Virus record (IMG/VR): IMGVR_UViG_2609460332_000008
Direction: 5' to 3' (one strand)
Source of the DNA: a virus
Lineage: Duplodnaviria; Heunggongvirae; Uroviricota; Caudoviricetes
DNA length: 64,000 nucleotides
The position numbers and the translations under genes were made by a program. This document shows positions 9,830 through 26,904 of this stretch, piece by piece. Position 1 is the stretch's first letter. The number at the start of each line of letters is the position of its first letter. The notes beneath the pieces were generated by a model. It saw only the letters and a program-made list of their open reading frames with translations. It was not told the origin of the DNA and did not search any database.

Positions 9830-11694
9830 TACCCTTGCTCCACGCTGGTGACGCCAGCCTGCGCACTGAGTCTGACGCCGGGTTGATCCACTCTGACACT
9901 TTTCACGCGGGCGTCACCTTCCACCACCACACGGATTTCCCCCTGCAATTGCTGCGGAAGGAAAGGATAATTCTGTGTGCCCTGCATACCTGCCCACGGT
10001 CGCGGGTCAGCAATGTTCTTGTCACCCAGCGAACTGAACCAGTCCGTTACCTTACGCCAGACGGACTCGAGCGCTTTCTGGTTGTCCTGACTCTGTTGCG
10101 CGAACTCGCGCTCCCGCGGGCTGGCGCTGGCATCACCGGCAACGGATTTAGTGAGACTGTCAACCTCACCCGGCAGGGCGTATTGTGTGGTCAGAAAATC
10201 GTAAAACTCCAGAGCACCGGCAATGATGCCAGCGCCTTTACCTGCCTTTCCTCCACGGTTACCCGGCCCCCGAGGATTGCGGGGATTGCGCGATGAATCT
10301 GGTGTATCCGGCAGACCGCCGGTATTACCATTCATCCCGCCACTGCCCATATTAACCACATAAACCGGCATCACACCGGAGCCGAAAACATCTGTAATGC
10401 CACCGGGTATTCCTTTGCCTTTCCCTTTGGGATTCATGATGTCGTGGAGGGTTTTACCTAACTGGTACGTTTTTCGGATGGCGATAATGCCGCCCACAGC
10501 AATCGCCATATATTTACCGACCTGCAACCAGTTCTGGACGGTGTTCTGGTCCACGCTGTTGATGGCATCAGCCAGGTCCTGAACGGGTTTTGCCAGTTGA
10601 TGGTGGGAGAATTTTTTCCAGCTGGTTTCCAGTGCCTGCATGGCAGACGTAAAATCCTGTGCAGCATACGCGGCATCTTTCATGATGCCTTTACCATCAC
10701 CGACGACTTTCATATAACGTTGCAGGTTTTCTGCACCTTTGCCTGACGTTACGCTGCTTAAAAGCATGACTGAATCCTGGTTAAAACCGGCTTCAATCAG
10801 CCTTTTATTTTGTTCTTCTGCGCCCCGGTTCCCTGATTTTCTGGCAATCTCCTGAAGCAATATCGGAAGCGATCGCATCCGGCCATCTTTCCCGTAAACA
10901 TCAATGCCATTTGTCCGCAATGTTTTTACAACCTTCGGAAGCTGTAAATCACGGATCAGATTTTCAACAGCGGTTGCGGCGGTATCACGGTTCCCTGTTG
11001 CATCAACGGCAGATTCAAGTGCAACCCCTACGTCCTTGACACCCTGCACACCACGTCCGCCCGCGGCGGAATACAGCGACATCGCACGGGTTGCTTTTTC
11101 TGCGATGTCTTTCAGTTCATAGGCACCTTCTTTTCCCAGCAGGTTCAGGGTATCCATTGCCTTTAAGGCATCGTTTTCATCCTTAATCCCGAACTTCGTA
11201 AACTGAGAAAACAGCGAGCCGATGGCTTCCCCTGAACTTCCGGAAGCGGCGATGGATGCCGCCATCATCTCCTTGTTTTTGAAACCAAAATCAATCTCAC
11301 CCGTCACGGTGCCGACTTTTTCCACAGCGCTTATCAGTTCACTGTCATCAACCTTAAATTTGATGGCGGCGTCCTGAATACCATTCAGCATCTGTGCCAT
11401 TTCGTCGCGCGTCTTTTCTGCAGCAATACCAATGCGGGTCATCCGGCGATCCACCTGCGCAAACTCACGCATCATGGCGCTACCGGCAAACCCGGCAATC
11501 ATTGCCGTGTAGCGGTTACCCAGCACATCAAGGCCACGTGTGGCAGATTCCGTTGTGGCTTTGACCAGATTCATTGCCTTCTGATGATTACGCGCGAACT
11601 GCGACATATTTGCGCCGTACTGCCGGGCTTTGGCGGTCAGGTTCCCGGCAAGGTTGATCATGATTTCCGTGCTGAGACGGTTACCTGTTGCCAT
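9829..11694 (-). CDS. Tail tape measure protein
   Basis: 621-aa ORF with Gly-rich C-terminal region, downstream of tube and chaperone genes. Confidence 0.7.
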   Translation of the reverse strand: MATGNRLSTEIMINLAGNLTAKARQYGANMSQFARNHQKAMNLVKATTESATRGLDVLGNRYTAMIAGFAGSAMMREFAQVDRRMTRIGIAAEKTRDEMAQMLNGIQDAAIKFKVDDSELISAVEKVGTVTGEIDFGFKNKEMMAASIAASGSSGEAIGSLFSQFTKFGIKDENDALKAMDTLNLLGKEGAYELKDIAEKATRAMSLYSAAGGRGVQGVKDVGVALESAVDATGNRDTAATAVENLIRDLQLPKVVKTLRTNGIDVYGKDGRMRSLPILLQEIARKSGNRGAEEQNKRLIEAGFNQDSVMLLSSVTSGKGAENLQRYMKVVGDGKGIMKDAAYAAQDFTSAMQALETSWKKFSHHQLAKPVQDLADAINSVDQNTVQNWLQVGKYMAIAVGGIIAIRKTYQLGKTLHDIMNPKGKGKGIPGGITDVFGSGVMPVYVVNMGSGGMNGNTGGLPDTPDSSRNPRNPRGPGNRGGKAGKGAGIIAGALEFYDFLTTQYALPGEVDSLTKSVAGDASASPREREFAQQSQDNQKALESVWRKVTDWFSSLGDKNIADPRPWAGMQGTQNYPFLPQQLQGEIRVVVEGDARVKSVRVDQPGVRLSAQAGVTSVEQG

Positions 11695-11890
11695 GCTGTT
11701 TCTCCAGTTGCTTTATCAGGCGGAACAGCTGCCGCAGGGGCAGCTGTTCCAGGTACTGAATGCTGAATCGCGAAGACAGGTTAACCAGCAGGTTCATCAG
11801 TGCCGCCGCCAGCGGCATCAGTTCGCCCCCGCGTTGCCACCTCCTCAAGCATTTCATCCAGCGCGGCGGCTTTCGTGCTGATAAGCTCAA
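11681..11890 (-). CDS. Candidate frameshift extension of the tail assembly chaperone (alternate-frame ORF overlapping chaperone 3' end and the tape measure start)
   Basis: ORF in another register overlaps 11781..11890 and runs to the tape measure start; conserved chaperone frameshift position in tailed phages; no slippery site identified. Confidence 0.3.
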   Translation of the reverse strand: MSLSARKPPRWMKCLRRWQRGGELMPLAAALMNLLVNLSSRFSIQYLEQLPLRQLFRLIKQLEKQHGNR

Positions 11891-12176
11891 GGTCTGCCGG
11901 ATGGAGCATTCGCAGCTGTTTCATGTCCAGCGGGCCGGGAATGCTGCCGATGGCCGCAACCTGACGGCGCATCATCTCCAGCCCCATCAGCACTTCAGAG
12001 CAGTAGGCCACCGCCTTTCCATTCCCGCCCATGACGACGCGTTCTGCGGCCAGTTGTGCATCAATCACATCACTGGCGGTCAGTTCGCGCAGCTTCACGG
12101 TTTTATGCAGGGTTTCATCTGCCGTGCCTTTGCCGGTCAGAAGCCCGTGTTTCAGTTCAAATTCCATTTCAGCCAT
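11781..12176 (-). CDS. Tail assembly chaperone
   Basis: 131-aa acidic ORF between the tail tube and tape measure genes. Confidence 0.55.
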   Translation of the reverse strand: MAEMEFELKHGLLTGKGTADETLHKTVKLRELTASDVIDAQLAAERVVMGGNGKAVAYCSEVLMGLEMMRRQVAAIGSIPGPLDMKQLRMLHPADLELISTKAAALDEMLEEVATRGRTDAAGGGTDEPAG

Positions 12177-12177
12177 G

Positions 12178-12534
12178 TCACACCTTCACGCATTTTTCAC
12201 CGATAAAGTTCGCACTGATGGTGCCGGAATCCTCGTCCAGCTCCGCCGGGTTATCCGTGGCGGACCCCGTCATCATGTAGTTCAGGCCGTTGTCGCCGTA
12301 GAACATCACCGTGACGTCTTCCCAGCTGCTGATTTCAATCACGTCCATATCCGCTGCCGCCGCAATGGTCACCTTGATGGACGGCGAGGCCATCTTGCTG
12401 GAGATACCCCAGACCTTGCCGCCGCCCATATGCTGGGTGCGACTGAAGCCGCCCGGATTCAGCGTGGATTTCCCCTCGGTTTTAATTTCGCGGCCATTCA
12501 CGCGAATGGTCGCCATGCCAAGAATTTTTGCCAT
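12178..12534 (-). CDS. Tail tube protein (Mu M-like)
   Basis: 118-aa ORF directly downstream of the sheath gene. Confidence 0.65.
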   Translation of the reverse strand: MAKILGMATIRVNGREIKTEGKSTLNPGGFSRTQHMGGGKVWGISSKMASPSIKVTIAAAADMDVIEISSWEDVTVMFYGDNGLNYMMTGSATDNPAELDEDSGTISANFIGEKCVKV

Positions 12535-12543
12535 GCGGTCCCC

Positions 12544-14019
12544 TTAAAGTTTGAACTGAATCAGGCCTGCCAGCACACGCAGCTGGTTCACCAGATTCGG
12601 GTGGCAGATAAAGTTCAGGCGGTTTTTATCGCTGCTGTCGCGTGTCACCTGAAGCGTGTCCCTGTAATCGCTGAAGTTCTCCACAAGGCCTGCCGGGAGA
12701 AGTTCGGTCTGGCAGATATCCAGCAGCTCTGCGGTGCACAGCTTCGGCGTCATCACCGGCTGACCGGCATCCAGTGAGTCCAGCACGTCATCATCCGCCA
12801 GCTTGTGGCGCGGATAACGGTTCGTGAAACGGTTTTTGATGATGTAGCGGATACGGCCCAGCGTGGCGGGTGACTGCACATCCAGGTACGACACATCCGC
12901 ATCACCGTACTGATTAACCCGGTACATGGTGATTTCACGCTCGATGCAGACGTTATCCCCGGCGTCCACCATGTGCGTGGCAATGCCGTCATGCAGCAGC
13001 AGATTACGCTCCGGCATATCCCAGCGAACATTACGCGCAGGCGGCAGAATGCCGGTCAGAACCAGCGTCTGAAGCGGACGCGCCGGGTCAATGGCAAGGT
13101 GATACGCTGCCGTTGCGCCGTATGACGCGGCCCACATCCACGCCGGGTGCGGTGACAGGTTGGTGCCGATACAGCTAATCAGCCAGTCATTGCGGGTTTC
13201 ACCAAACGTGCCGGTTTCCCCGTGTGTGCCACGAAACGCCGTCCACAACTGCGCCTCCATCATTTTGAGCGGCCCCCAGCGATTCAGCAGTTCATCACGC
13301 AGGGTGTTCAGGCTTTTCGTGTCGGTAAACGGGGCGATGATATCGGTAAACCACTCCGGGCCGATGGCCGCAACGGCATCCGCCATTTCCGGTGTCCCGG
13401 TGCCGCCGGTAAACGCAGTAGCGGTCACCTTCACACCTGCCGGGAAGGCTTCACCGGTGTAGTAGTTCAGGCGAACGTCGGCACCGTTGCCGGTGACGCC
13501 GTGCCAGTTCACGGTCAGCTCCACGGTATCCGTGGCATCATCCTTCACCGCAGCGGCCACCTGCGTGGCAGGCTTTTTCGTCACCGCATCAGCAATGGCT
13601 TTTGCAATGTTTTCCTTCGTAGCCCCGGCGCTCACGCTCACCTGAACGGACACACCGTTAATCAGCAGTGCCACCGTTCCGGCTTCAGTCGCTGTACCCA
13701 GCACGGTCAGCGTGGCTTTTGCGGCAGCGCCTTCAGGCGCGGCAACCGGCATTGCCCAGGTTTCCGTGTACGTGTTGGCACGACGCAGCATTTTGAGCAT
13801 TTCAGCCAGCATCGACCCTTTGCCATAAAGCTGGTCTGCCTGGCTGTCACTGGTGATGCGGGTCAGTGACAGGGCGTCTGCGCTGCCGGACGATACCGCA
13901 TGGCCCATGACCAGAATTTTTCGGCTTTGCGCGGATGCACCCTCCAGCGCCTGTGAATTGTCGATATCGATCCAGACAAGCGGGACGCGGATATCATCAG
14001 GAATTGAACCCAGCGACAT
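12544..14019 (-). CDS. Contractile tail sheath protein (Mu L-like)
   Basis: 491-aa ORF, sheath-sized, followed by the tube gene. Confidence 0.7.
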   Translation of the reverse strand: MSLGSIPDDIRVPLVWIDIDNSQALEGASAQSRKILVMGHAVSSGSADALSLTRITSDSQADQLYGKGSMLAEMLKMLRRANTYTETWAMPVAAPEGAAAKATLTVLGTATEAGTVALLINGVSVQVSVSAGATKENIAKAIADAVTKKPATQVAAAVKDDATDTVELTVNWHGVTGNGADVRLNYYTGEAFPAGVKVTATAFTGGTGTPEMADAVAAIGPEWFTDIIAPFTDTKSLNTLRDELLNRWGPLKMMEAQLWTAFRGTHGETGTFGETRNDWLISCIGTNLSPHPAWMWAASYGATAAYHLAIDPARPLQTLVLTGILPPARNVRWDMPERNLLLHDGIATHMVDAGDNVCIEREITMYRVNQYGDADVSYLDVQSPATLGRIRYIIKNRFTNRYPRHKLADDDVLDSLDAGQPVMTPKLCTAELLDICQTELLPAGLVENFSDYRDTLQVTRDSSDKNRLNFICHPNLVNQLRVLAGLIQFKL

Positions 14020-14219
14020 TATTTTTTCCCTCTGGTTTTGTTGCTATTTTTCGGAAGCGCGGTTATTTCCACATCTCCTTCGGCTTCACGGCGCAGCCAG
14101 TAAGCGCAGACGTCGAGACGTTCCCCTTCCGGGGATAAATGCGCGCCATCCGGTTTACGGACACGGACGTTTTCCCGCGCTGGCTTAATCAGTTTCTGTT
14201 CCATCGTCACCCCGTACAT
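14019..14219 (-). CDS. Small hypothetical virion-module protein (66 aa)
   Basis: ORF start overlaps upstream gene end; conserved position upstream of the sheath gene. Confidence 0.4.
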   Translation of the reverse strand: MYGVTMEQKLIKPARENVRVRKPDGAHLSPEGERLDVCAYWLRREAEGDVEITALPKNSNKTRGKK

Positions 14220-14796
14220 GGATCACGTCGTTAATCTCAGTATGTTCACCGCTACGCAGCGTTGCCCCGAGGCGCAGGAAGTCCGGGAGCGCGGCGAGAT
14301 CAATCTCTTCATCCAGCTGAAATTCCTGCTCCCACGTCACCGCCCACATGGTGACGCCCAGCCCGTCGAGGCTGGCGGAGTAAATGTTGTCTGCCCGCAC
14401 ATCAGCAGCCATGCGTTCAGCCCCCATGCCCCCGGTGGCATCCGACGACAACAGGCGTTTGATCACCTTCCCGGCCAGCACTTCACAGCGCACGTCGCGG
14501 GAGTACCCCCACGAATCCGTCGCCATGATGTAAGCCACCCAGGTAACCAGACCGGACAGCCCGCCGCGCGGGTTGATATCCCGGACACGCAGGGCAGCTA
14601 CCCGGATACAGCCGGTGCGACCGGACAGATAGCGTTTGACTTCCTCCGGGCTGTTGAACTGGCCGATGTGACGCTCCACCACGTCAGCCCGGTCAGGGGT
14701 TTTCCCCTGAAGTGCTGTTTTCAGCCAGGCCACAATGCGCTCTGCGGCCGCAACGGTGCTCCCCGGTGTGCGCAGTTCAGGGCGTTGTTCTGTCAT
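14185..14796 (-). CDS. Hypothetical head-tail / neck module protein (203 aa)
   Basis: ORF in the structural operon between head and tail genes. Confidence 0.45.
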   Translation of the reverse strand: MTEQRPELRTPGSTVAAAERIVAWLKTALQGKTPDRADVVERHIGQFNSPEEVKRYLSGRTGCIRVAALRVRDINPRGGLSGLVTWVAYIMATDSWGYSRDVRCEVLAGKVIKRLLSSDATGGMGAERMAADVRADNIYSASLDGLGVTMWAVTWEQEFQLDEEIDLAALPDFLRLGATLRSGEHTEINDVIHVRGDDGTETD

Positions 14797-15338
14797 GGCA
14801 GAACCTCCTTCCAGAAATGACTGATAACCTGTTGCAGCTCCTGCTGGTTGGCAGAAGACAGCCCCAGAAATTCACGTTGCGGAATGTTCATCATGCGGTT
14901 ATGTGCGCCGACGGTCTGCCAGACCGGATATTTCAGCGCCCGCCCGAAACACTGCGAGATAAGCCGTTTGTGGGCGCTGACCGGCACACTGCCGGAAAAG
15001 CCGTCATTCATGATGCGGGCATAATCCAGCGGTGAACCGATACGCACCACGCGGTTTTCCACGATGTACTGGATACTCTCCAGCAGATGGCCTTCACCAC
15101 GCAGCAGACTCTGGTTGCCGTGGCGGGTCTTTTTGTACCCGTCAGACCAGTCCGGCCAGCGTTCGCCACCCGGACTGGTTTTCTCATCAATGATGCGGCG
15201 GCGGGTCTGTGATTCCACCACCGCACCGATGCTCTCCAGCAGCTCTGCCTGCAATGAACCATCTGCCAGCTTTTCAACGGCACGGCGGATATCCTCCAGC
15301 CGCTGGTCACCGCTGACCTGTACAGAAATCCCCATCAC
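14793..15338 (-). CDS. Putative virion morphogenesis / tail completion protein (181 aa)
   Basis: ORF in the structural operon; overlapping start and stop with neighbours. Confidence 0.45.
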   Translation of the reverse strand: MMGISVQVSGDQRLEDIRRAVEKLADGSLQAELLESIGAVVESQTRRRIIDEKTSPGGERWPDWSDGYKKTRHGNQSLLRGEGHLLESIQYIVENRVVRIGSPLDYARIMNDGFSGSVPVSAHKRLISQCFGRALKYPVWQTVGAHNRMMNIPQREFLGLSSANQQELQQVISHFWKEVLP

Positions 15339-15772
15339 AGCACCCCTTTCAGGTTGTTACGGGTGAACAGCCGGGCATTGGCACCCACCACAATGATCTT
15401 CCCGTGGTCGGTTTCTGCCGGGGTGGCATACGTCGGCAGACCCAGGTCACGGGTGCCGTTCGCCATCTCACGCAGGGTTTTAATGGCGTCGTCGTAGCGT
15501 TTCTGGATCAGCTCCGTGATTTGATTGTCACGCTCTGACAACCAGTAAAACGCCAGCGATACCGCCACGCGTTGCAGCGGGCGCGGGATTTCCGTCACCC
15601 CCAGCGGCAGCTGGTAGCGGCGGGACAGAAACGAATCAATTTCCGCTTCGGCATCACTGATGGCCTGACGGATTTTGTCTTCATCCAGTTCGTTGGTTTC
15701 CCGGTTAATCGCCATGTTCCAGACAAGATTGCCGTCCGCGCGTAACAGGTCTTCCTGCGTGATATACCCCAT
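15335..15772 (-). CDS. Hypothetical head-tail connector-like protein (145 aa, Mu gp36-like)
   Basis: ORF downstream of the major head gene in Mu order. Confidence 0.45.
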   Translation of the reverse strand: MGYITQEDLLRADGNLVWNMAINRETNELDEDKIRQAISDAEAEIDSFLSRRYQLPLGVTEIPRPLQRVAVSLAFYWLSERDNQITELIQKRYDDAIKTLREMANGTRDLGLPTYATPAETDHGKIIVVGANARLFTRNNLKGVL

Positions 15773-16083
15773 CAGCCTTTCTCCGCTTCCCGGACAATCA
15801 GATTCGGCTCTGCCATCAGGCGGGTGGCAACCGCAGCGCTCACCGCCACATCCTCACCGGCATGTGACCAGAAACGACCACAGCGCCAGAACCCGTTTTC
15901 AGACACGGCCCGGACGTTCAGCCGGACAGGGGCGTCCCCCTGTACAACAGCCGGGTCTTCAGCCGGACGTGGTTCATTCGCCTGACCGTCAGCCACAATA
16001 ACGTCTGCCAGCGGTGCCGGGTTTTCCTGTGCTGCGCTGTTCTTTGCGGCTTTCGCGCCTTTGGTTCCTGCTTTTTCACTCAT
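15772..16083 (-). CDS. Hypothetical head protein (103 aa)
   Basis: ORF immediately downstream of the major capsid gene. Confidence 0.4.
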   Translation of the reverse strand: MSEKAGTKGAKAAKNSAAQENPAPLADVIVADGQANEPRPAEDPAVVQGDAPVRLNVRAVSENGFWRCGRFWSHAGEDVAVSAAVATRLMAEPNLIVREAEKG

Positions 16084-16154
16084 GACTCTGCCTTTTGAAA
16101 GGCAGTTAAAAGGGCATTCACAACGCCTTTTAACTGCAATTTACGGATGACGGG

Positions 16155-17057
16155 TTATGCCGGGGTGGTGATGAACGGACTGACCACGATGTCCACATCC
16201 TTGTACCAGATGTTGGAATCGCCGCCGTTTACCAGCATGGCGTCAATGATGCGCTTCGCAGCCGCGCGATTTTTCGGTCCCACCACAAGGGTGGTCGGGC
16301 GGATGCCCAGCGGTTCACCGTTGGTGGCCTTCATACCCAGCAGCAGATTACTGGCGCTCTCGTAGTTCTCCGCTGTCAGTGCCGCACGGGAACCGACGGC
16401 GGTTTGCCAGAAGCCGAATCCTGCATTACAGCGACCGTCCACCCCGTACAGGAACTCGTTATTCTTGAAGGTGTGCTCGCTGTTCAGATCGTCCAGGGCT
16501 TCAAACTTAAAGGCGCGTCGCGTCTGCCAGATGATGGGTTTCAGTACCTGAGAATCATCAATCAGAAACCACGGTTCCCCCTGGTCTGATGCCGGGGTGC
16601 CGACAACGTTGCTGTATGTGCCGTCGCCCAGCGGGTGGTCTTCATCAAAGAAGTTCTGACCGTCAAAACACAGGGTGTTAAACCCGGCACACAGCAGGGG
16701 GTAACACAGCTTGTCCGGGAACTCTGACGTCTGGCGGCCATAGCGTTCAGCGATAATGCTGTACTGACCAATCTGATCGTCTTCAATGTGTTCGCGTTTA
16801 ACGCGGATCGAACTTTCCCAGGTTTTGTTCGCAAGGGTGTAACCATAACCGTCCAGCGTTGCCATCTGACGGGCGCTGACCCATTCTTTAATCTCCGGTA
16901 AATCTTTCATCCAGCCGTAGGTATTGGAAGCGGACGAACTCGGGATTTCAGAGGCGATGCGCTGCCACTGTGGGGTAACACCACTCAGACCACGGGTATA
17001 AGCGGCGCTCAGGCAGGTGGTCAGCGCGTGAAGGACTTCGGAAGTGACTGCTCCCAT
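16155..17057 (-). CDS. Major capsid protein (Mu T-like)
   Basis: 300-aa ORF following the protease/scaffold gene; conserved Mu-like head order. Confidence 0.7.
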   Translation of the reverse strand: MGAVTSEVLHALTTCLSAAYTRGLSGVTPQWQRIASEIPSSSASNTYGWMKDLPEIKEWVSARQMATLDGYGYTLANKTWESSIRVKREHIEDDQIGQYSIIAERYGRQTSEFPDKLCYPLLCAGFNTLCFDGQNFFDEDHPLGDGTYSNVVGTPASDQGEPWFLIDDSQVLKPIIWQTRRAFKFEALDDLNSEHTFKNNEFLYGVDGRCNAGFGFWQTAVGSRAALTAENYESASNLLLGMKATNGEPLGIRPTTLVVGPKNRAAAKRIIDAMLVNGGDSNIWYKDVDIVVSPFITTPA

Positions 17058-18019
17058 CAGTTATTCTCCTGTTTCGGTTTAGCGGCGAGGAACTCTTCCC
17101 CGGTAATACCCATGCTGCGGCACATCGCCAGTTCGGCGTCGGTCAGTGTCTGCGCGGGTTTATCCTTGCCCTGGCTGGGCTTGTCGTTGTTCACCAGCGG
17201 CTGTGCACCTCTGGTGTATTCCGCAAACTGTTTGCGGCCTTCTTCCGTGCGGCAGGTGGCAAGGAACATGTCACGGTTTGCCGGGGCCACTTTTCCGGCT
17301 TCGATGGCCGCATCCACAAGCGCTTCTGCTTCCTTAGCTTCCAGTTGCTGAAGGCGTTGTTCTGCGGTTTCTGCACGGTTCAGTGCCAGATTGTGGGTTT
17401 CCACCGGCACAAACTTCGTCAGGTCAGGTGTCTGTGCGCGGTTCAGCGCCACCTGTTCGCTCTCCTGAAGTTGTTTAATGGCGGCCACGGTATCGTCCAC
17501 CGTGGCGGATTCAGCCAGCCCAAGCAGGCCGGTGATTTGCACAGGTACTGTCATCGGGTTTTTCTCCGTATTCAGTGCAGGAAAATCCAGGTTAGGTTTG
17601 TTGGTCAGCCCGACGCTGGACAGGCGCGTCACCACACCCTCCGCGTCATGGAAAAACGCCGGGCTGTAATAGCGATAGCGGCGCTCGCTCAGCATCCACC
17701 TGGCGGATTCACTCCAGACAACACGCCCTTCAATGATGCCGTTGTCCGTCACCCGCAGTTCTTCCACCCAGCCATACGCCGGGGCTTCATCACCGCGTTG
17801 CCCTTTAATTTCGGTGGCGTGTTCAATGTCCACCGGAATTTTGATGTCGGACGAGCGGGTGACCACCTCATGCGGATTGCGGTTAATCCACGTCCGGCCA
17901 TCGCGCCCGGTGAACTCACCCGCAGGGACGAGTTCAAGCCATTCCGGCAGTTGAGCGGGTGTCAGCTCAGGGATGGGTTCTGGCAGGGAAAAACACAGCG
18001 CCAGCAGTTCCGGTTGCAT
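17057..18019 (-). CDS. Prohead protease / scaffold protein (Mu I-like)
   Basis: 320-aa ORF with Ala/Glu-rich coiled-coil C-terminal half (scaffold-like), upstream of the major capsid gene. Confidence 0.65.
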   Translation of the reverse strand: MQPELLALCFSLPEPIPELTPAQLPEWLELVPAGEFTGRDGRTWINRNPHEVVTRSSDIKIPVDIEHATEIKGQRGDEAPAYGWVEELRVTDNGIIEGRVVWSESARWMLSERRYRYYSPAFFHDAEGVVTRLSSVGLTNKPNLDFPALNTEKNPMTVPVQITGLLGLAESATVDDTVAAIKQLQESEQVALNRAQTPDLTKFVPVETHNLALNRAETAEQRLQQLEAKEAEALVDAAIEAGKVAPANRDMFLATCRTEEGRKQFAEYTRGAQPLVNNDKPSQGKDKPAQTLTDAELAMCRSMGITGEEFLAAKPKQENN

Positions 18020-18068
18020 GTCAGTCTCCGTCGTTTGGGGTTACCGACGGTCAGTATGCGGAAGGCAG

Positions 18069-18090
18069 AAAAAAAGCCGGATTTACCGGC
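18069..18090 (-). terminator. Rho-independent terminator between F-like and I-like genes
   Basis: Minus-strand hairpin GCCGG-TAAAT-CCGGC followed by a U7 run; 26-nt sequence identical to 25804..25829. Confidence 0.6.
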
Positions 18091-18232
18091 TTCACTGAAA
18101 ACGGGAAAATACCCCCTTCAAAACCCCTTCAAAAACGCCACAGCATCTTCAAAAACGTCAGAATGCACATTCACGCCATCAGAATAAAAAACGCGTTTCT
18201 GATGCGTTTCAGGGGGATTTGCGGCGGGAGGG

Positions 18233-18997
18233 TTACTCTCTGTCAAAACGGGCCTGTTTTGTCGCCAGCTGGCGCGCCAGCGCCTGCTCACGGTTTATGC
18301 CGGGATTGTAGTTCCAGCCCGGATCAATCCCTTCCGGCACCTCTTCCTCTTCGCCCGTGCGTTTGTTCACCCAGCGGACAGTTCTGATTTCCGGCGCTTC
18401 GGTGTGAATGGTGCCCTGTGCCGCCAGTTGCGCATATTCACCACGGCTGACCTGACGGATGGTGCATTTGCAGCCCCAGCCGTTAGGGGCGAAATGTGTC
18501 AGCCAGAACGGATGATCAACCGGCAGACACAGACGTGCCCATTTCACATGCTCCGCCCGGTGCTCGCGGGATGGTCCCAGCTCGTAAATCAGATACGGCA
18601 TGGCCCGCTTTGTCCGCTGGATGCGTTCCCACTGGCCCGCCGCGCGGGCGGTGCGCATGTTGGTATCAAAAATCGTGCGGAGGCGGCGGTCGCTGCCCAG
18701 TTGCACGGTGCGGGTTTCGCCCGTCAGCGGATCATCCATCTCCTGAACACCCCACCATCCGCGTTTTATCAGCAGCGGTTGCAGCGCCTCCCGGAACTCG
18801 CTGAACGTCTGTCCGCTTTGCAGGGCGTCTTCCACAAGGGCTTTCACATCCGACAACAAATCCAGTTGCAGCATTTTTGCCACGGTGAAGCTGTTCCGGT
18901 GTTCTTCCCGCCACACATCCCGGTAATCAAAACCGGGGCGCAGCTTCTTCGCCTTCAGCCACGCCAGCGCCTCTTTCGGGATGAGGGTTTCACGCAT
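18233..18997 (-). CDS. Head morphogenesis protein (Mu F-like)
   Basis: ORF directly downstream of the portal gene; start placed at ATG 18995-18997 after the portal stop. Confidence 0.6.
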   Translation of the reverse strand: MRETLIPKEALAWLKAKKLRPGFDYRDVWREEHRNSFTVAKMLQLDLLSDVKALVEDALQSGQTFSEFREALQPLLIKRGWWGVQEMDDPLTGETRTVQLGSDRRLRTIFDTNMRTARAAGQWERIQRTKRAMPYLIYELGPSREHRAEHVKWARLCLPVDHPFWLTHFAPNGWGCKCTIRQVSRGEYAQLAAQGTIHTEAPEIRTVRWVNKRTGEEEEVPEGIDPGWNYNPGINREQALARQLATKQARFDRE

Positions 18998-20561
18998 GGC
19001 CGGTGTCCCCCAGCGCACGCGCCTTAAAGCACACCTCCGCCAGTTGCAGGGCAAAGTCGTCCGCGTTCAGCGTTTCCTGAAGCTCAGGCAGACGTTTCAG
19101 AAAGTCATCAAAACTGTCGCATTCCTGCGCCAGTGTCAGCACCGGGTTCGTGAACACCTCGCCGGTTTTCTGCCAGTCACGCAGGGCATCATCCACCATC
19201 AGCGCCAGTTCGTCGGAGTGTTCACGGTTCAGGGCGACGCGCTCGCGGTTCATCGCCACATCACCTGACATTCCGGCAGACACCGGATGCAGAACATCAG
19301 CCCCGTCGTCCGGTTCAGCCAGGCCGAACCGGTCCCGCAGCTCCGATTCCTGAACCCGCATCCCCCGGTCAATCAGCGGCACCAGAGCATCTGTCAGCGC
19401 CTTCAGATCTTCCGCTTCACTGATACGCAGAACAACACGGGGGTAGTGCGCCTGTGGCCCGTAGTTGGCCTCGATGTAGGGCCGCACCAGATATTCATTC
19501 AGCGTGTTAGCCAGCTGCCGCGCGTCCCAGCGCACAATGTCCATGCGCACCTGATTGTGCACGTCCGCCTGTGAACGCGAACTGCCGTTATCCGTGGTCA
19601 TGGTCTGCCCCAGCACAGCCTTACTGATTTGCGCATCACACCATTCCGCCATTTCACGGAACAGTGCGCCGCCGTTATTCCGGCTGGCGGTTTCCTTCAT
19701 TTCCAGTTGCATGGACTGCGGAATGGCACACCCGGCATCCGAGGCAATGGAAGCAATCGCATCAATCAGCACGCGGATTTGCTCCTCCGTGGCGTTGGGG
19801 CCGTATTTCCCCACTGTAACCGGAATGCCGAACTTTTCCGCAAATGCCCACCAGTCGCGCACGGTAAAGGATTTCAGCATGTACATCACCGCCACCAGAC
19901 GGGCCAGACCGTTACGCAGCGGCAGACCGGATTTCAGGCGCGGCTGGTGAACAATGAATTTTCCCGGTGTCAGCGGTACGCCATCCACCGGTTCATCGTC
20001 AGTCAGCAGGCGGAACTGGCGCAGCGTGGTTTTTTCGGCTTTCAGAAAACGGGGATCAACCCACTCATAATCACGGGGCATCCAGTGGTTTTTGTGGGTA
20101 TTCCACAGGATTTCACAGACCGCCACGCCTTTTCCCAGCCCGTCGAGCAAATCAAACATCAGTTCGGGGATTTGCGGGGCTTCCATCAGTGCACGGATGG
20201 CGTCCGCCAGTTGCACGTCAGCATCGTCATCACTGGCGGCCACCACCACCGGTTCGATACCCGCCACCGTCAGCTTGCGGGTGCGCAGCACCGAGGCGTA
20301 ATGCAAATCACGTTCTTCCATCTCTTCGGCAAGGATAAAAAAATCACGCGTGATGCCGTCGGCGGCATTGCGCAGAATGCCTGCCAGCCTGCCGGGATTC
20401 AGCCCGGAAGCAATGCTGATGCCCGGCGAGGCCGAACGTACGCCAGCCTGACGCGGGCGGGCCTGTGCTTCATTGAGCGCCTCTTTTTTCAGGGTGTCGC
20501 CCTCGCCGGTTGTCGGGTTCAGCAAATGACGAACATCCCCGGTCTGTTGTTTCAGGTTCAC
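18990..20561 (-). CDS. Portal protein (Mu H / gp29-like)
   Basis: 523-aa ORF downstream of the terminase large subunit gene. Confidence 0.7.
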   Translation of the reverse strand: MNLKQQTGDVRHLLNPTTGEGDTLKKEALNEAQARPRQAGVRSASPGISIASGLNPGRLAGILRNAADGITRDFFILAEEMEERDLHYASVLRTRKLTVAGIEPVVVAASDDDADVQLADAIRALMEAPQIPELMFDLLDGLGKGVAVCEILWNTHKNHWMPRDYEWVDPRFLKAEKTTLRQFRLLTDDEPVDGVPLTPGKFIVHQPRLKSGLPLRNGLARLVAVMYMLKSFTVRDWWAFAEKFGIPVTVGKYGPNATEEQIRVLIDAIASIASDAGCAIPQSMQLEMKETASRNNGGALFREMAEWCDAQISKAVLGQTMTTDNGSSRSQADVHNQVRMDIVRWDARQLANTLNEYLVRPYIEANYGPQAHYPRVVLRISEAEDLKALTDALVPLIDRGMRVQESELRDRFGLAEPDDGADVLHPVSAGMSGDVAMNRERVALNREHSDELALMVDDALRDWQKTGEVFTNPVLTLAQECDSFDDFLKRLPELQETLNADDFALQLAEVCFKARALGDTGHA

Positions 20562-22093
20562 AGTAAACCTCCCTCATTTTTCAGGCCGCGTGTCAGCTTC
20601 ATCTGGCGGCGCGTGTTGCCTTCTTCCGGTTTCGCCGGGCGGTTCAGGCGGTGCAGCTCGTAACGGTGGCAGTCATCCTTGCTGGCAAGGAAGCCCAGGA
20701 AAATGGCCACAGCGGCGTCGCCGTGACGCTTGCGGCCATCACTACCTTTAGTACGGGCATCGTCAATGCCGGGAACACCACGCAGTAACTGAATGGCCCC
20801 GAGGTCATTGATCACGTCTTCATGCTTCGGAAGGATCAGCTCATCATCTTCAAACGCTGCACGGAAACGGGGCATGTTTTCGCGGTAGAACGCCACGGAC
20901 AGCATCACCTGTTCCACCTCATCGCCGTACCGCTCCGCCGCCTGTTCTGCCAGATACTGACCATTCCCCCGTGCATCCATTTTGATACCGTCACGACGGG
21001 GCAGACGATCGCAAAGCCAGAACAGCACCTGCTCCTGCTGTTTAAACGGCACATTGCCAAGCTCAACCAGGAACGGCACCTCGCGGGTGGTGTCATCGTT
21101 CACCGTCACCGGGGCCAGTACGGTCAGGTCACCCGAACGCGCAAAGTCTTCCCCCAGACAGTGGCGCAGGTTCTTCGGGAGTTTTTCCAGCTCGGGACGC
21201 ACCACTGTTTCCAGCCATTCCCGGATATCTGCCCGGCGCTGACTTTCCGTCAGTGCGTTAAATTCCGGTGTGCCGGTAAAGCGCAACACTTTTCCGGTGC
21301 CACGGGCCGCACGTTCACGCAGTGAGCGGGGGATATACGTGCCGCCGCCGTTTTTCGGGACGCAGTAATATTCCTCCAGGGCGTCTTCGCGGGTGGCGGT
21401 ATTTCGCAGCAGGCCTTCTTTCCATTCCGCTTCGGCTTCCGGTGACCACACCATGCCGCGCACCTGACAGATACGCCGGTACAGCCCGTCATTGCAGGCG
21501 TCATCCAGCGTGATGGTGTGAATGCGGTAATCCCGTTTTCCTGCGCGGCTTTCCAGAATCAGCTGGTTAAACAGGTTGTCCACGCCGTCATGGGTGGAAA
21601 TAAGGCGAATTTTTCCGCCCCATGTTTTCAGCGGCAGCACAGCCTTCAGCAGCTCGTCCAGTTTTTCATGGAACGCGGCCTCGTCGATGGTGACATTCCC
21701 CTGCATCCCGCGAATGTTGCTCGGGTTGCTGGACAGTGCCTTGACCTTAAAACCGCTGGCGAAGTACACGACGAACGTCAGAATGTCCTTGTCTTCGTCG
21801 GTGATCACTTCCTCGCAGATTTCTTCCGCTGCCGCATTAAACGCTTTCGCCCACATCGCCACGGCGTCGATAAATTCGCGGGCCATCTCCTTATTCGAAC
21901 CGATATAAAAGTGATCGCGCCCGCCGAATTCCTTCTTCAGTGATGCAGTCAGTGCCGCATCTGCCGCCTCCGCCCAGGTTAAACCGGTACGGCGGGATTT
22001 CTCGGCGATTTTCAGGTCGGCATCATCCGCCACCCAGCGTTTCTGATACGGCAGCAGAACATCGGATTCACTGAACGTGTTCATCTGTGTCAT
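20558..22093 (-). CDS. Terminase large subunit (Mu gp28-like)
   Basis: 511-aa ORF upstream of the portal gene. Confidence 0.7.
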   Translation of the reverse strand: MTQMNTFSESDVLLPYQKRWVADDADLKIAEKSRRTGLTWAEAADAALTASLKKEFGGRDHFYIGSNKEMAREFIDAVAMWAKAFNAAAEEICEEVITDEDKDILTFVVYFASGFKVKALSSNPSNIRGMQGNVTIDEAAFHEKLDELLKAVLPLKTWGGKIRLISTHDGVDNLFNQLILESRAGKRDYRIHTITLDDACNDGLYRRICQVRGMVWSPEAEAEWKEGLLRNTATREDALEEYYCVPKNGGGTYIPRSLRERAARGTGKVLRFTGTPEFNALTESQRRADIREWLETVVRPELEKLPKNLRHCLGEDFARSGDLTVLAPVTVNDDTTREVPFLVELGNVPFKQQEQVLFWLCDRLPRRDGIKMDARGNGQYLAEQAAERYGDEVEQVMLSVAFYRENMPRFRAAFEDDELILPKHEDVINDLGAIQLLRGVPGIDDARTKGSDGRKRHGDAAVAIFLGFLASKDDCHRYELHRLNRPAKPEEGNTRRQMKLTRGLKNEGGLL

Positions 22094-22692
22094 GCGCTAA
22101 TCCCCAGAAGTTCACGTTTGATGGTGTCAGCCGCACCGCCTGACAGACCGCCCGTTCTGACCAGTTCTTCGGTTTTCTCTGCCATCTCCTGCGCAAACGC
22201 ATCGCGGATCGCTTTCTCGCGTTTATGGCTGGTCATGGCTGCCGCTTCCAGACGTTGGGCAACCAGCGCCAGTTGGCCCAGCGCCTTCGGTGCAACAGGT
22301 TTGTCATCTTCTGCCATCGACATGGACGTTTCAAAGGCCAGCGTTTTTACAAACTCCATCAGCAGCTTGCCGACGTCTGACGTCGGCGCGGAACCCAGCT
22401 TTGCCGCCCAGACTTCGGCCATTTCGCGGGAGGCGCGGATTTTGGCCCCGACTTTTTCCATGCGGATGGCATAGCGGTTTAAGCCCGTCCGGCTTAACTG
22501 CATCTCTTCCGGCAGGTTATGTTCGTCAATCAGGGCGTTGATGGCTTCGCGGATTTCTTCCTGTGTGTGCCGCTTTTCCCGCAGCATCTGATGCAACTGC
22601 TCCCGGATGCTGTCCGGGAGTAAATCCACTTTGGAAAGACGGCCACGGGTGGGGCGTTGTTCATTTTCCATGTGTGCCCTCCTGTTGCTCAC
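22090..22692 (-). CDS. Terminase small subunit-like DNA-binding protein (Mu gp27-like)
   Basis: 200-aa basic/acidic ORF overlapping the terminase large subunit start. Confidence 0.55.
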   Translation of the reverse strand: MSNRRAHMENEQRPTRGRLSKVDLLPDSIREQLHQMLREKRHTQEEIREAINALIDEHNLPEEMQLSRTGLNRYAIRMEKVGAKIRASREMAEVWAAKLGSAPTSDVGKLLMEFVKTLAFETSMSMAEDDKPVAPKALGQLALVAQRLEAAAMTSHKREKAIRDAFAQEMAEKTEELVRTGGLSGGAADTIKRELLGISA

Positions 22693-22808
22693 TACGCTGT
22701 GAACTTTCGTATGCAGATTTCAGCGCGCCACTCTGGATTTCACGCCATGTCAGGTTGTGCGCCAGACGGCGGAGTTCATCACGGGACGCTTTACTTATCG
22801 GATTCTTT

Positions 22809-23108
22809 TTACGGTTCACGACGGCCCCCGTCTTCAGTTCCCGGTGTTTTCAGACCGGCGTATATTTCTTCGCGAACGGAGCGGATATCCTTACCCAGCA
22901 GCTTCCACAGCCGCGCACATGCCGGTGATGAACGCAGGGCACGTTTCATGGGGGTATCCGGTGCATCCGGGTTCCAGGGCTTTCCGGTCTGTTGTTCGTA
23001 TGCACGGACAATGGCGTTTTGCTCAATATCTGCCAGCACAAGGCAGTACGCCAGTTGCCGCACGACGGCCCGTTCTCCGCGACTTAACGGCTTCAGTTTT
23101 CGGGCCAT
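22809..23108 (-). CDS. Hypothetical protein (99 aa)
   Basis: ORF in the late region between lysis genes and terminase; no recognisable motif. Confidence 0.4.
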   Translation of the reverse strand: MARKLKPLSRGERAVVRQLAYCLVLADIEQNAIVRAYEQQTGKPWNPDAPDTPMKRALRSSPACARLWKLLGKDIRSVREEIYAGLKTPGTEDGGRREP

Positions 23109-23110
23109 GC

Positions 23111-23404
23111 TCAGTCCCTCGCACGGGGTTTTTTAACGCCCGGAACGCTGGACAGGCCGTTTGCCACATCCTCGCCGCTGCCGGTGATTTCAGCCACGTA
23201 ACAGCCGCCCACATCAGACAGACGAACCAGCCCCTGCTCGCGCAGCCATGCAAGCTGGGTGCGCACCACATCACGGGATACCTTATGACCGTAGGCCTGA
23301 AGGCAGGTCTGCAACACGGATTCATTCGCGCTGTCGCCACAGTCCAGCAGGGAACGCAGCAACACAAGACGACGGTCTTCAGTGAGGATCTCTTTCATCG
23401 CCAT
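23111..23404 (-). CDS. Hypothetical protein (97 aa)
   Basis: ORF tightly packed with neighbours. Confidence 0.4.
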   Translation of the reverse strand: MAMKEILTEDRRLVLLRSLLDCGDSANESVLQTCLQAYGHKVSRDVVRTQLAWLREQGLVRLSDVGGCYVAEITGSGEDVANGLSSVPGVKKPRARD

Positions 23405-23709
23405 TATTTTTTTTCCTTTAACTCGTTCTCTAATAACAAATCGCTGATGCGGGATACCTGGCGGATGGATGGCCCCAGCTCTTTGATTTCTCCCCGCAGG
23501 TTGCTGATATCCAGTTGCAGGCGGTGGAACTCATCACGGTCGGGTAAATGGTGTACCTGGCTTTCCATCACCGACATGCGGGAACGGAGTGAATCAAACT
23601 CTTCGCGTTTGACGTAGGTTTTCGCCAGAATCAGCTGAAGCAGGTTTATTCCTGTCATCAGCAATGCCCACAGAATGGGCCAGTTGGCTCTGATCATTTC
23701 CCAGGACAC
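23404..23709 (-). CDS. Membrane-anchored coiled-coil protein (101 aa), possible lysis accessory protein
   Basis: N-terminal hydrophobic segment WPILWALLMTGINLLQLILA followed by a charged coiled-coil region. Confidence 0.4.
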   Translation of the reverse strand: MSWEMIRANWPILWALLMTGINLLQLILAKTYVKREEFDSLRSRMSVMESQVHHLPDRDEFHRLQLDISNLRGEIKELGPSIRQVSRISDLLLENELKEKK

Positions 23710-23921
23710 GTTTTCCTCCTGCGTTCCCGCATCTGCTGACAGTCAATACAGGTCACCACATCCGGCAGCGCCGCAAGGCGCTGTGCCGGAATAACGTTCC
23801 CGCAGTCATTGCAGAAGCCCCGGCTGTGGGGCGCTTCTTTTGCCCGCGTCTGCCAGGCTTTAACGACGCTCTGACGCTCGTTCAGAACCACTTCACTGAT
23901 GCGGTCGATTTCGTCGGTCAT
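23694..23921 (-). CDS. TraR/DksA-family C4 zinc-finger protein (75 aa)
   Basis: CNDCGNVIP...CIDCQ four-cysteine motif in a small basic protein. Confidence 0.6.
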   Translation of the reverse strand: MTDEIDRISEVVLNERQSVVKAWQTRAKEAPHSRGFCNDCGNVIPAQRLAALPDVVTCIDCQQMRERRRKTCPGK

Positions 23922-24526
23922 TTCGGCCCCGCAGACATTTTGTGACGGCTCGATTTGCTGTAACGGGCAAAACCGTCAAGGGTTCTTACGCCGAGATAGC
24001 CCAGCGCCGGGGTAAGCAACATCAGCGTGATATCCCAGTCCGGTGACGGCATATGCAGCGAGATACCTCTGGCACAGGCAATGGCTCCGGCAATCTGGCC
24101 GCAGGAGAGCAACAGCACATAGGCCAGACTGCTGTAACAGGAAAGGCGGGCCAGCAGCGGGCGCGTCTGGCGCACATAGCTGTCCGTGGCGTTGTCACCA
24201 TTGCGGATGGTTTCCTGCTGTTCGTGGTGTGCGGCCTGCTGGTCAGCCAGCACCAGCTTCTGCCGTTCCACCTCCAGCTGTTGCAGCTGAATTTTCAGGG
24301 TTTCCAGTTGCACCAGTTGCTCCGGTGACAGCATCACCAGTTTTTGTTCCAGAATGCGTTGCTGTTCAGCAACGGGAAGGCTTTCCCGGACGCTTTCCAC
24401 CATACCGGCCACCGAGTCAGCGGCGGCAGATGTACTGCCACCAAACCAGCGCCCGACGGAACGAATCAGCCCCGGCCCGGCTTTCAGCAGAACAGAGGCG
24501 ATGCCTGAAAGGGTTAACGGATCCAC
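23918..24526 (-). CDS. Lysis-associated membrane protein with central coiled coil and C-terminal transmembrane segments (203 aa, GTG start)
   Basis: GTG at 24524-24526 preceded by GGAGG; coiled-coil LEQKLVMLSPEQLVQLETLKIQLQQLEVERQKL; two C-terminal hydrophobic segments. Confidence 0.45.
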   Translation of the reverse strand: MDPLTLSGIASVLLKAGPGLIRSVGRWFGGSTSAAADSVAGMVESVRESLPVAEQQRILEQKLVMLSPEQLVQLETLKIQLQQLEVERQKLVLADQQAAHHEQQETIRNGDNATDSYVRQTRPLLARLSCYSSLAYVLLLSCGQIAGAIACARGISLHMPSPDWDITLMLLTPALGYLGVRTLDGFARYSKSSRHKMSAGPK

Positions 24527-24939
24527 GGGAAACCTCCATACAGATAACGCTGAAGACAGAGCAGACCGCCGCAACTGCCACCACACAGCCAGAACACCGG
24601 ATGCACCGGTGACATCATCATCAGCGTGCTGAAGACGCAGCAGAAATATCCCAGCGCCCAGACCACCCATGACCACACGATGATGTGGCGACCAAAAGCC
24701 CGGTAACGGACCTCAGGCAGCAGGCGAAATGGCACATTCCCGAGGCTTGCGCTGTATGAAAACAACACCACCCCGGCAAAGGACAACAACATCAACACGA
24801 ACGATCGCCAGCCACATAACATGCTGATGATGAACATGCAGAGTGTCAGTCCGGCCAGCGGCCATGGGGTTCTCATCAGTCGGGAACAAAGCAGCCAGTC
24901 ACACAGTTTTAAAATTTTGTTCATTACCTTTTTCCACAT
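24514..24939 (-). CDS. Multi-pass membrane protein (start uncertain; may begin at a later Met near 24876)
   Basis: Strongly hydrophobic segments (LTLCMFIISMLCGW, VLMLLSFAGVVLFSY, VVWALGYFCCVFSTLMMM); N-terminal part of the long ORF is probably not coding. Confidence 0.45.
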   Translation of the reverse strand: MWKKVMNKILKLCDWLLCSRLMRTPWPLAGLTLCMFIISMLCGWRSFVLMLLSFAGVVLFSYSASLGNVPFRLLPEVRYRAFGRHIIVWSWVVWALGYFCCVFSTLMMMSPVHPVFWLCGGSCGGLLCLQRYLYGGFPWIR

Positions 24940-25150
24940 TGAATTTTTCCCTGTACTTCTGGCACTGCCAGAAAATGTCCCGTGTATCCACGGAGTTCCA
25001 GCCACGCATGTAGTAGCTGGCGTGTGTGCCGTCATGGCCGGTATAGTCCAGCGGTTTCGGGGGCGGACCTCCGGCCATGCGGTGCAGAACCTCCTGACGC
25101 AGGCGGTCACGCCGCCCGGCTTTCAGTGAGGCATCCCAGCCTTTGCCCAT
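24899..25150 (-). CDS. Hypothetical protein (83 aa) immediately downstream of the lysozyme-like gene
   Basis: ATG adjacent to the upstream stop; Trp/Tyr-containing soluble-type sequence. Confidence 0.4.
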   Translation of the reverse strand: MGKGWDASLKAGRRDRLRQEVLHRMAGGPPPKPLDYTGHDGTHASYYMRGWNSVDTRDIFWQCQKYREKFNVEKGNEQNFKTV

Positions 25151-25151
25151 A

Positions 25152-25748
25152 TCACCCCCGCGTGGCGGACATGATGCCCAGAGGGGTATCGATGATTTCC
25201 AGACAGGCGTCGGTCAGTTTTTCCATGCGGTTAAACCAGCCGTTCAGGTATTTACCCTGGGCGGGTTTTGACTTGATGATGTCGGCATAAAAGCGGGAAC
25301 GACGGACAATGCAGCGGGCCAGCAACCAGTCCGGGGTGAACAGACTCACGGCCTTACGGGTACGTGGGCCGATGATGCCGTCAGCATCCACATCAGCGGC
25401 TTCCTGCAAAATTTTGATGGCTTTTTTAACGCCATGCTGAACCGCTGCATCGAACACAAACATCGCCACGCCATCAGGCCACTGGTCACATCCGGCAGGC
25501 AGCCAGTAATCGCGCCAGTAAATCTGCGCGACCTGTTCGCGGGTTAAATCCTTAATGCGGGTATCCGGTTTGCCGTCGCCGTTGACATCGGTTTTGCCGT
25601 CAATCACACCGTCGCGGCGGTCAGAAATGCCGTATTTGGTTTCGCCGCCACGGTCAGTGGGGTCATTGACATAGACGCCTTCGATATCGGGACGCAGAAT
25701 GAAATTCAGCGCATGCTCAAAGGCCGGGGAGAATTTTTGATTTTCCAT
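25152..25748 (-). CDS. Peptidoglycan hydrolase, GH108-like lysozyme with peptidoglycan-binding C-terminus (putative endolysin)
   Basis: Motif EGVYVNDPTDRGGETKYGIS typical of the GH108 muramidase family; first gene after the early-operon terminator. Confidence 0.6.
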   Translation of the reverse strand: MENQKFSPAFEHALNFILRPDIEGVYVNDPTDRGGETKYGISDRRDGVIDGKTDVNGDGKPDTRIKDLTREQVAQIYWRDYWLPAGCDQWPDGVAMFVFDAAVQHGVKKAIKILQEAADVDADGIIGPRTRKAVSLFTPDWLLARCIVRRSRFYADIIKSKPAQGKYLNGWFNRMEKLTDACLEIIDTPLGIMSATRG

Positions 25749-25803
25749 AAAAGCACCTGTGAAGCAGATTTAAACGTGGTCTGCTTCATGGTGCCGGAGG
25801 CAT

Positions 25804-25825
25804 AAAAAAAGCCGGATTTACCGGC
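25804..25825 (-). terminator. Rho-independent terminator at the end of the early operon
   Basis: Minus-strand hairpin GCCGG-TAAAT-CCGGC followed by U7, directly after the Mor/C-like gene stop. Confidence 0.65.
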
Positions 25826-25833
25826 TTCATTGA

Positions 25834-26831: not shown

Positions 26832-26904
26832 TATCGTACCTCCAGAAAAGGGGGCGGTGCGGCAACACCGCCAGAATCCACTCACTAAACAGAGGAAGCT
26901 TTTT

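Follow-up and report, generated by a model that had tools for sequence, protein, structure and literature searches.

A gene-free gap upstream of the protease gene in a Mu-like prophage: a probable gyrase-site homologue next to a terminator hairpin and a predicted Mor-type promoter

What does a Mu-like prophage keep in a gap between two head genes where no gene is to be found? In the prophage studied here an interval of 213 bp (18020..18232) is bounded upstream by an F-like gene, whose product is named 'phage minor head protein' in RefSeq, and downstream by an I-like protease gene. All positions are those of the window, that is, the whole stretch of 64,000 nucleotides that was analysed, and the features discussed are collected in Table 1. 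Our answer, which we regard as probable when taken as a whole, is that the gap is the counterpart of the G–I intergenic region of phage Mu, a gene-free stack of cis-acting sites: its best explanation is that a gyrase-site homologue, a terminator hairpin and an overlapping Mor-type promoter lie there side by side.

Table 1. Features of the F–I gap, of the second 26-mer locus and of the prophage that carries them
Feature	Coordinates	Strand	Details
Mu-like prophage	640..34209 (33,570 bp)	minus	5-bp target duplication CCAGC flanks both ends
F-like minor head protein gene	18233..18997 (RefSeq start); mechanical ORF to 19054	minus	Pfam PF04233 (Phage_Mu_F), E 8e-14
I-like head maturation protease gene	17057..18019	minus	Pfam PF10123 (Mu-like_Pro), E 1e-44
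Mor/C-family activator gene, orthologue of Mu Mor	25834..26283	minus	Pfam PF08765, E 4e-30
GH108 endolysin gene	25152..25748		Downstream neighbour of the second 26-mer copy
Inverted repeat CATCAGAA-N12-TTCTGATG	18177..18204 (arms 18204–18197, 18184–18177)	minus	Just after the F stop codon
Putative homologue of the Mu strong gyrase site	18100..18172	minus	Right arm with three TTTT(T)GAAG repeats, 18157–18110
Small hairpin GGGGGTATTTTCCC, then GTTTTC	18103..18116	minus	From the terminator scan
Predicted 16-bp Mor-binding element, gene-I promoter	18081..18096	minus	AGTGA-AGCCGG-TAAAT; 14/16 identical to AGTAA-AGCCGG-TTAAT of Mu Pm
Hairpin of intrinsic-terminator form, with T7	18069..18093	minus	Stem 18093–18086/18080–18073, loop TAAAT, T7 18075–18069; overlaps the Mor element
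-10-like hexamer CATACT, gene-I promoter	18053..18058	minus	22 nt after the Mor element
Inverted repeat CCGTCG-N11-CGACGG	18028..18050	minus	Between the -10 hexamer and the gene-I ribosome-binding site; −9.7 kcal/mol
Second copy: predicted Mor element with overlapping hairpin and T7	25804..25831	minus	Mor element AATGAAGCCGGTAAAT, 25831–25816; hairpin and T7, 25828–25804
-10-like hexamer CACCAT, lysis-operon promoter	25788..25793	minus	22 nt after the Mor element

The prophage and its gene-free junction

The ends of the prophage read TGTATTGATTCAC… and …CGCCGCTTCA, and the two copies of the target duplication are located at 635–639 and 34210–34214. The left end is 90% identical to that of phage Mu over 340 bp, and despite this the head genes are far from those of Mu. 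The genome is strongly mosaic in other respects as well, with an I protein 25% identical to that of the Mu-type prophage in E. coli PEC422 and an activator 63% identical to Mu Mor. Positions 17900–18350 are 100% identical to the corresponding region of E. coli KFu019, and the prophage family is found in 46–49 of 5,426 complete E. coli genomes (around 1%). The list of open reading frames (ORFs) also points to a second, lambdoid-looking prophage on the plus strand (around 35790–64000), within approximately 1.6 kb of the Mu-like one; it includes an integrase-sized ORF at 35793–36836 on the minus strand and long plus-strand ORFs, up to 63852, that resemble terminase, portal and tail genes.

The relatives compared comprise 19 viral contigs of the E. 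coli type, the Klebsiella phage Kp4866-3, a Brenneria prophage and a clade numbered L025–L033, and the I proteins of those outside the E. coli type are approximately 60% identical to that of the window. Scanning a genome collection with the I protein detected one locus only, in Brenneria. Alignment of six lineages, including Mu, reveals a common architecture of the gap, in which TTTT(T)RAAS repeats are followed by an activator site, an ACTG-containing -10 region, an inverted repeat and the start codon.

The original prediction held the gap to be gene-free, and this is indeed the case: no sense-strand ORF of at least 20 aa was found in 18020..18232, and in all of the E. coli genomes carrying the gap (46/46) RefSeq annotates nothing there. 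Among relatives the length of the gap is constant.

A parallel had also been drawn with the anti-CRISPR loci of Mu-like phages of Pseudomonas. Phage JBD30 carries AcrF1 and aca1 between G and I, directly before gene I, at the same junction of morphogenesis genes and I protease; in the present prophage, in contrast, nothing is inserted there. No insertion of the anti-CRISPR type (small acr/aca genes before the protease gene) was recognized in this gap, nor was inserted cargo found at the F–I junction in the approximately 30 relatives examined; cis-acting sites fill the junction. The parallel is thus right as to place, but with neither this gap nor those of the relatives holding an insert it has no bearing on the present case. 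In Kp4866-3 a low-G+C ORF of 110 codons, resembling a small membrane protein, is located between mor and the lysis-operon promoter (L003 7958–8290), and the hairpin and Mor site follow this extra ORF rather than mor itself. That junction, and not the F–I gap, is therefore the place where this family takes up cargo.

The duplicated 26-mer and its promoters

The 26-mer AAAAAAAGCCGGATTTACCGGCTTCA, which reads tGAAGCCGGtaaatCCGGCTTTtttt on the minus strand, occurs exactly twice in the window even when three mismatches are allowed (18069–18094 and 25804–25829), and none would be expected by chance. Its second copy is situated between the Mor-family gene and the GH108 endolysin gene, and the identity with a copy after the Mor-family gene, as noted originally, is exact. 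Both copies form a hairpin with an 8-bp stem, of which five pairs are G–C, and a 5-nt loop, with a fold of −12.6 kcal/mol (z −3.7 in the gap, −3.9 after the Mor-family gene), followed immediately by seven T residues. A G+C-rich hairpin and an adjoining U-run are thus present on the transcribed strand, in the form of an intrinsic terminator, and the terminator scan flags both copies. This much had been foreseen, although the hairpin was placed slightly too short, at 18069..18090, and its stem runs to 18093. By its position, the hairpin in the gap would end the transcript of the lysis, terminase, portal and F genes.

The 26-mer is, however, more than a terminator in form. When the Pm region of Mu (the mor–gp18 intergenic region) was compared by BLAST with the 64-kb window, the two best matches were the two 26-mer copies (27/29 identities at 18097–18069 and 24/25 at 25827–25803, both with E 9e-7). 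The Mor-binding site of Mu spans 16 bp, from -51 to -36 with its centre at -43.5, and replaces the -35 hexamer; it is made up of two 5-bp inverted repeats around a G/C-rich hexanucleotide (PMC4390567, PMC4287176). In Mu the region after mor reads AGTAAAGCCGGTTAATCCGGCTTTTTTT, then 10 nt, then TATCCT. Within Mu Pm a single sequence, AGTAA-AGCCGG-TTAAT, has the 5-6-5 form with a spacer rich in G/C, and we take it to be the Mor element on the basis of that verbal description. The positions of the Mu -10 hexamers and C sites used below likewise come from our own parse of the Mu sequence.

Compared with Mu Pm (Mu 9173–9215), both loci of the window have the CCGGC that follows the element, the T7 tract and no -35 hexamer, TCCGGC occupying the -35 position. 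The lysis-operon copy of the element (AATGA-AGCCGG-TAAAT) comes directly after the activator gene, as the element of Mu comes directly after mor. The distance from element to -10 hexamer is 22 nt in Mu Pm, as in both promoters of the window, and 22–23 nt in Kp4866-3, Brenneria and L025. The two -10 hexamers are poor, although both have A as their second base and T as their sixth; they differ from the TATCCT of Mu. CATACT stands opposite CAAACT in the alignment with the PI region of Mu, and opposite CACACT or GACACT in relatives, and would place the start of gene-I transcription around 18046–18045, while at the lysis promoter relatives have CAAAAT, CACTAT or CATGAT at equal spacing.

The prophage encodes a single Mor/C-family protein, of 149 aa, which matches Mu Mor with an E value of 9e-63 and is only 32% identical to Mu C. 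Its helix-turn-helix is nearly identical to that of Mu Mor (TVYKAI+RMRR) and its gene directly follows the GemA homologue, as mor does in Mu. RefSeq annotates no other Mor-family product in the prophage, which lacks a C gene. The two 26-mer copies stand at similar distances before the endolysin gene and gene I, in the places of Plys and PI of Mu. [quoted passage not shown] We conclude that it has two roles, as the predicted Mor-binding site of a Pm-type promoter and as an intrinsic terminator, likewise predicted, that overlaps it. The reading of the 26-mer as a terminator was therefore incomplete, in that it missed the Mor element. At the second copy the early operon would end and the activator of the lysis-operon promoter would bind, and each copy would belong to one Mor-type late promoter, the pair corresponding to Plys and PI.

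This arrangement is different from that of Mu in several respects. Pm occurs once in Mu and drives the C operon, whereas in the window the predicted equivalent occurs twice and would drive the lysis and head operons directly. The C-dependent Plys and PI of Mu are alike in place, the former after the last regulatory gene before lys and the latter directly upstream of gene I, and the -10 region of PI is alignable (CCGCAAACTGAC in Mu, CCGCATACTGAC here), with an inverted repeat after the hexamer in both. In contrast, the activator site is of the Mor type here (AGCCGG core) and of the C type in Mu (…ATAACCCC…), and cross-activation between Mor and C is reported not to occur (PMC4287176).

No more than two Mor-type sites were found, which leaves the expression of the tail genes (approximately 17 kb) and of mom unaccounted for. 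A candidate third promoter of this type, in the baseplate V-like gene (around 7120–7105; in Kp4866-3, L003 27153), was rejected as coding conservation, with the conserved peptide GKTVN. At 7105–7124 on the minus strand this gene contains the motif-like AGGGAAAACGGTAAATCT, with TATTAT 18 nt further on, and the hexamer is lost in other lineages. At the com/mom promoter (1590–1750) no Mor site was found. This control region (minus strand) has a GATC cluster like that of Mu Pmom (GACGATCGA…ATCGATCG), which is its only likeness to Pmom, and it also includes a stretch resembling a Mu C site, TTAAATACCCCCAG, in a prophage that has no C gene.

The original prediction expected the 26-mer to be conserved in related phages. 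The motif GAAGCCGGTWAATCC has exactly two strong matches per lineage in four of four lineages, at the lysis gene and at gene I, and in each case on the upstream side. At the lysis operon the full hairpin with T7–8 is kept in all four, while the terminator has decayed at some gene-I copies. In L025–L033 the right arm and the T-run are gone (−5.1 kcal/mol, z −0.5), in Kp4866-3 the stem is broken and the right arm and T-run are degraded, and in Brenneria a compensated stem is followed by a weak T-run. Yet in every one of these relatives the left arm and loop of the gene-I copy persist, as does the AGTGA before them (in Kp4866-3, AGGGA), and the -10-like hexamer stays at its distance; the 16-bp element is retained there in 16 of 16 positions in L025–L033 and 14 of 16 in Kp4866-3, with a spacing of 23 nt. 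Within the E. coli lineage (20 sequences) only 3% of the columns at 18069–18099 are variable (1/31), as against 16–19% in the coding flanks and 25–28% in the rest of the gap.

These data bear on the simplest alternative, namely that the 26-mer is only a duplicated intrinsic terminator with no role in transcription initiation. It accounts well for the classic form of the hairpin described above and for the location of both copies at the ends of gene blocks. It does not account for the gene-I copies of L025–L033 and Kp4866-3, which keep Mor element and spacing after the hairpin has been lost, so that a terminator alone would not explain the conservation. Moreover, compensatory changes in the stem would be expected, and Brenneria alone has one, and the 26-mer is nearly identical to Mu Pm, where Mor binding was established by experiment. 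We therefore assign this alternative a low probability, and prefer the reading as terminator and Mor-type promoter in one. The exact identity over 26 nt has a further aspect, namely a likeness between the spacers of the two copies (TGCCT.C.GCA) that is seen in the E. coli lineage and not in the others. There, it would seem, the gene-I copy has recently been overwritten by the lysis-operon copy; identity and spacer similarity together are best explained by shared binding constraints and recent homogenisation.

An inverted repeat lies in the leader of gene I, and repeats of differing sequence are found at the equivalent place in Kp4866-3, Brenneria, L025, PEC422 and Mu. In fact every Mor-type promoter examined, including Mu Pm, has an inverted repeat that extends from, or from just after, the -10 hexamer to near the ribosome-binding site (18050–18028; 25788–25760; Mu Pm, L081 1219–1248; L003 16030–16055; L025 around 9960–9985), and the stems vary by lineage, for example GTCCGT/ACGGAC and GTCCGG/CCGGAC. 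RNAalifold gave no consensus structure for the leader repeat, since its stems do not line up between the aligned sequences. As the 5' arm is upstream of the predicted start, the repeat could be folded in read-through transcripts only.

The repeat block and the gyrase site

Upstream of the Mor element the gap contains the direct repeats CTTCAAAA, which were absent from the original prediction and are the part that appears to match the right arm of the strong gyrase site of Mu. In Mu this right arm is the essential part of the site, with repeat motifs that induce DNA bending (PMC10052514, a review). The repeats align with Mu sequence 33–72 bp to the right of the annotated cut site, 17879/17880. 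An ungapped alignment to that cut site would put cleavage around 18169/18168, which is a positional guess only; the aligned cleavage region (18156–18170) is variable within the lineage, and the cleavage-site sequence of Mu is not conserved.

The direct similarity to Mu is weak: a local alignment of the window with Mu over the right arm gave z 4.3, with one of 500 shuffles reaching the score, and BLAST of the G–I region of Mu against the whole window produced no significant match at 18.1 kb. The homology of the gap to Mu was traced instead by position-restricted alignment and through intermediates, with local alignments of z 11 for Kp4866-3 with Mu, z 10 for L025 with Mu and z 16 for the window with L025. 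Furthermore, a stretch of 46 bp (18110–18155) is 95.7% identical to the G–I gap that E. coli PEC422, TUM9757 and SE11 carry in Mu-type prophages, although the I protein of that prophage (PEC422) is only 25% identical to that of the window. Either the arm has been swapped between lineages, or it is under a very strong host constraint. In the PEC422 prophage (L034 2985–3075), as in those of TUM9757 and SE11, the F, G and I genes have the lengths that they have in Mu. The core of the block (18117–18141) has a single variable column in 25 among 20 relatives.

A homology to the gyrase-site region of Mu had been proposed, as had a place near the centre of the genome. The central place is upheld; the homology, weak in the direct comparison, becomes clear through the intermediates and the 46-bp block. 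The repeat block lies at 47.9% of the length of the prophage, the Mu cut site at 48.7%, and the block of Kp4866-3 at approximately 48.1% of the deposited record. The putative site of the window and that of Mu are also alike in their gene-free gap right upstream of gene I, in their alignable right arm with TTTTTRAAS units, and in the common CCCGTTTT. They differ in the gene upstream, which is F in the present prophage since the G homologue (14793–15338) is further downstream than the gap, and in the cleavage sequence. From these alignments we consider a gyrase-site homologue in the gap likely. Among the alternative gyrase sites tested in place of that of Mu, only one could replace it, and this came from a Mu-like prophage in E. 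coli O157:H7 Sakai (PMC10052514). Resemblance is no guarantee of activity. A dinucleotide periodogram of the gap gave no clear peak at 10–11 bp, and the spacings of the T-tracts, 20 and 11.5 bp, match the helical repeat only roughly.

Within the gyrase-site arm the 11-mer CGTTTTTGAAG occurs on the minus strand at 18127–18137 and 18147–18157. A third exact copy, inverted, is found at 33996–34006 on the plus strand, around 210 bp from the left end of the prophage, within a double CTTCAAA(A) motif; Mu too has this motif there, CAGCTTCAAAAAACGTTCAAAACCG.

The second inverted repeat noted originally (catcaga...tctgatg, at 18177..18204) does exist, but it is weak, at −11.5 kcal/mol and z −2.0, no T-run follows it, and nothing about it points to a function. 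It is limited to the E. coli lineage, being absent from the aligned place in Kp4866-3, Brenneria, L025 and Mu. Its place corresponds to the left arm of the gyrase site, which is reported to be dispensable in Mu. The small hairpin at 18103..18116 could be a weak first terminator; its CCCGTTTT part is shared with Mu, and the hairpin itself is variable and prone to indels within the lineage.

Could the repeat block TTTTTGAAG be something other than a gyrase site, such as a bend, a contact for the alpha-CTD, an IHF/HU site or another protein-binding or promoter-accessory element? It lies only 15–75 bp upstream of the Mor element, and Mu Pm has a proximal UP-element subsite (PMC4390567); the weak similarity of the window to Mu and the variable cleavage region would also be in keeping with such a role. 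The lysis-operon promoter, however, has no such repeats upstream of its copy, and the block aligns with the mapped essential right arm of Mu, beside the annotated cut site, and keeps its central position in three genomes. A block identity of 96% with I proteins of only 25% identity likewise fits a host constraint better than a phage-specific regulator. We thus judge an accessory element unlikely. Far less credible is a gap that encodes a product, either a small RNA of approximately 90 nt ending at the hairpin or a small protein, and we rate this as very improbable. Its basis is a weak match to sroD (18068–18156, minus strand, 22 bits, E 0.09), the only Rfam match, and an antisense ORF of 142 codons (17959–18387) that spans the gap. 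The sroD score is far under the gathering score of 50, and a promoter scan of 14000–28000 placed no sigma-70 site in the gap; the frame of the antisense ORF is shifted in close relatives by indels at 18108, 18116, 18214 and 18230, and the sense strand is closed, as described above.

A predicted transcription scheme and its meaning

Taken with the gyrase-site homologue and the Mor-type promoter, which remain our preferred reading of the gap, the homologies, spacings, conservation pattern and fold energies observed suggest a scheme in which Mor binding, transcription starts, termination and gyrase cleavage would be ordered as follows. Early transcription would pass through mor and stop at the hairpin 25828–25804. 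As Mor builds up, it would bind the 16-bp elements and bring the sigma-70 RNA polymerase of the host to the lysis-operon and gene-I promoters, neither of which has a -35 hexamer. The copy after mor would thus end the early transcript and switch on the lysis operon. The transcript of the lysis, terminase, portal and F genes would in turn stop at 18093–18069, inside the gene-I promoter, from which transcription would restart and drive gene I and the head genes downstream. By analogy with Mu, the TTTT(T)GAAG repeats would wrap around gyrase, the centre of the prophage would thereby become supercoiled, and its two ends could come together for replicative transposition.

A further possibility is that hairpin and Mor site form one fused stop-and-restart module, in which Mor, or the supercoiling set by gyrase, decides what stops and what starts. 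The inverted repeat of the Mor-type promoters is a possible companion, which might silence the translation of lysis and head genes from RNA that did not begin at the Mor-activated promoter. We consider this reading improbable; if true, the module would tie the timing of the late genes to the replication state of the prophage.

Mu offers a well-studied equivalent for every element recognized here, in Pm with Mor, in Plys and PI and in its strong gyrase site, so that the gap is a region of a known kind, and none of these results overturns current understanding. What is specific to this family is the predicted set of Mor-type late promoters without a C gene, and a gyrase-site arm that is strikingly conserved across distant prophages. 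An apparently empty gap thus becomes a readable control region, with coordinates for a probable gyrase site, a terminator and, counting the lysis-operon copy, two predicted Mor-type late promoters. An arm that is 96% conserved between prophages whose I proteins are 25% identical amounts to a natural experiment on what the gyrase of E. coli needs in a site. Finally, the late genes of this prophage appear to be driven straight from Mor-dependent promoters of the Pm type, with no tier of their own for C as in Mu, which suggests that some relatives of Mu may use a two-step cascade, early and then Mor-driven late, in contrast to the three steps of Mu itself.
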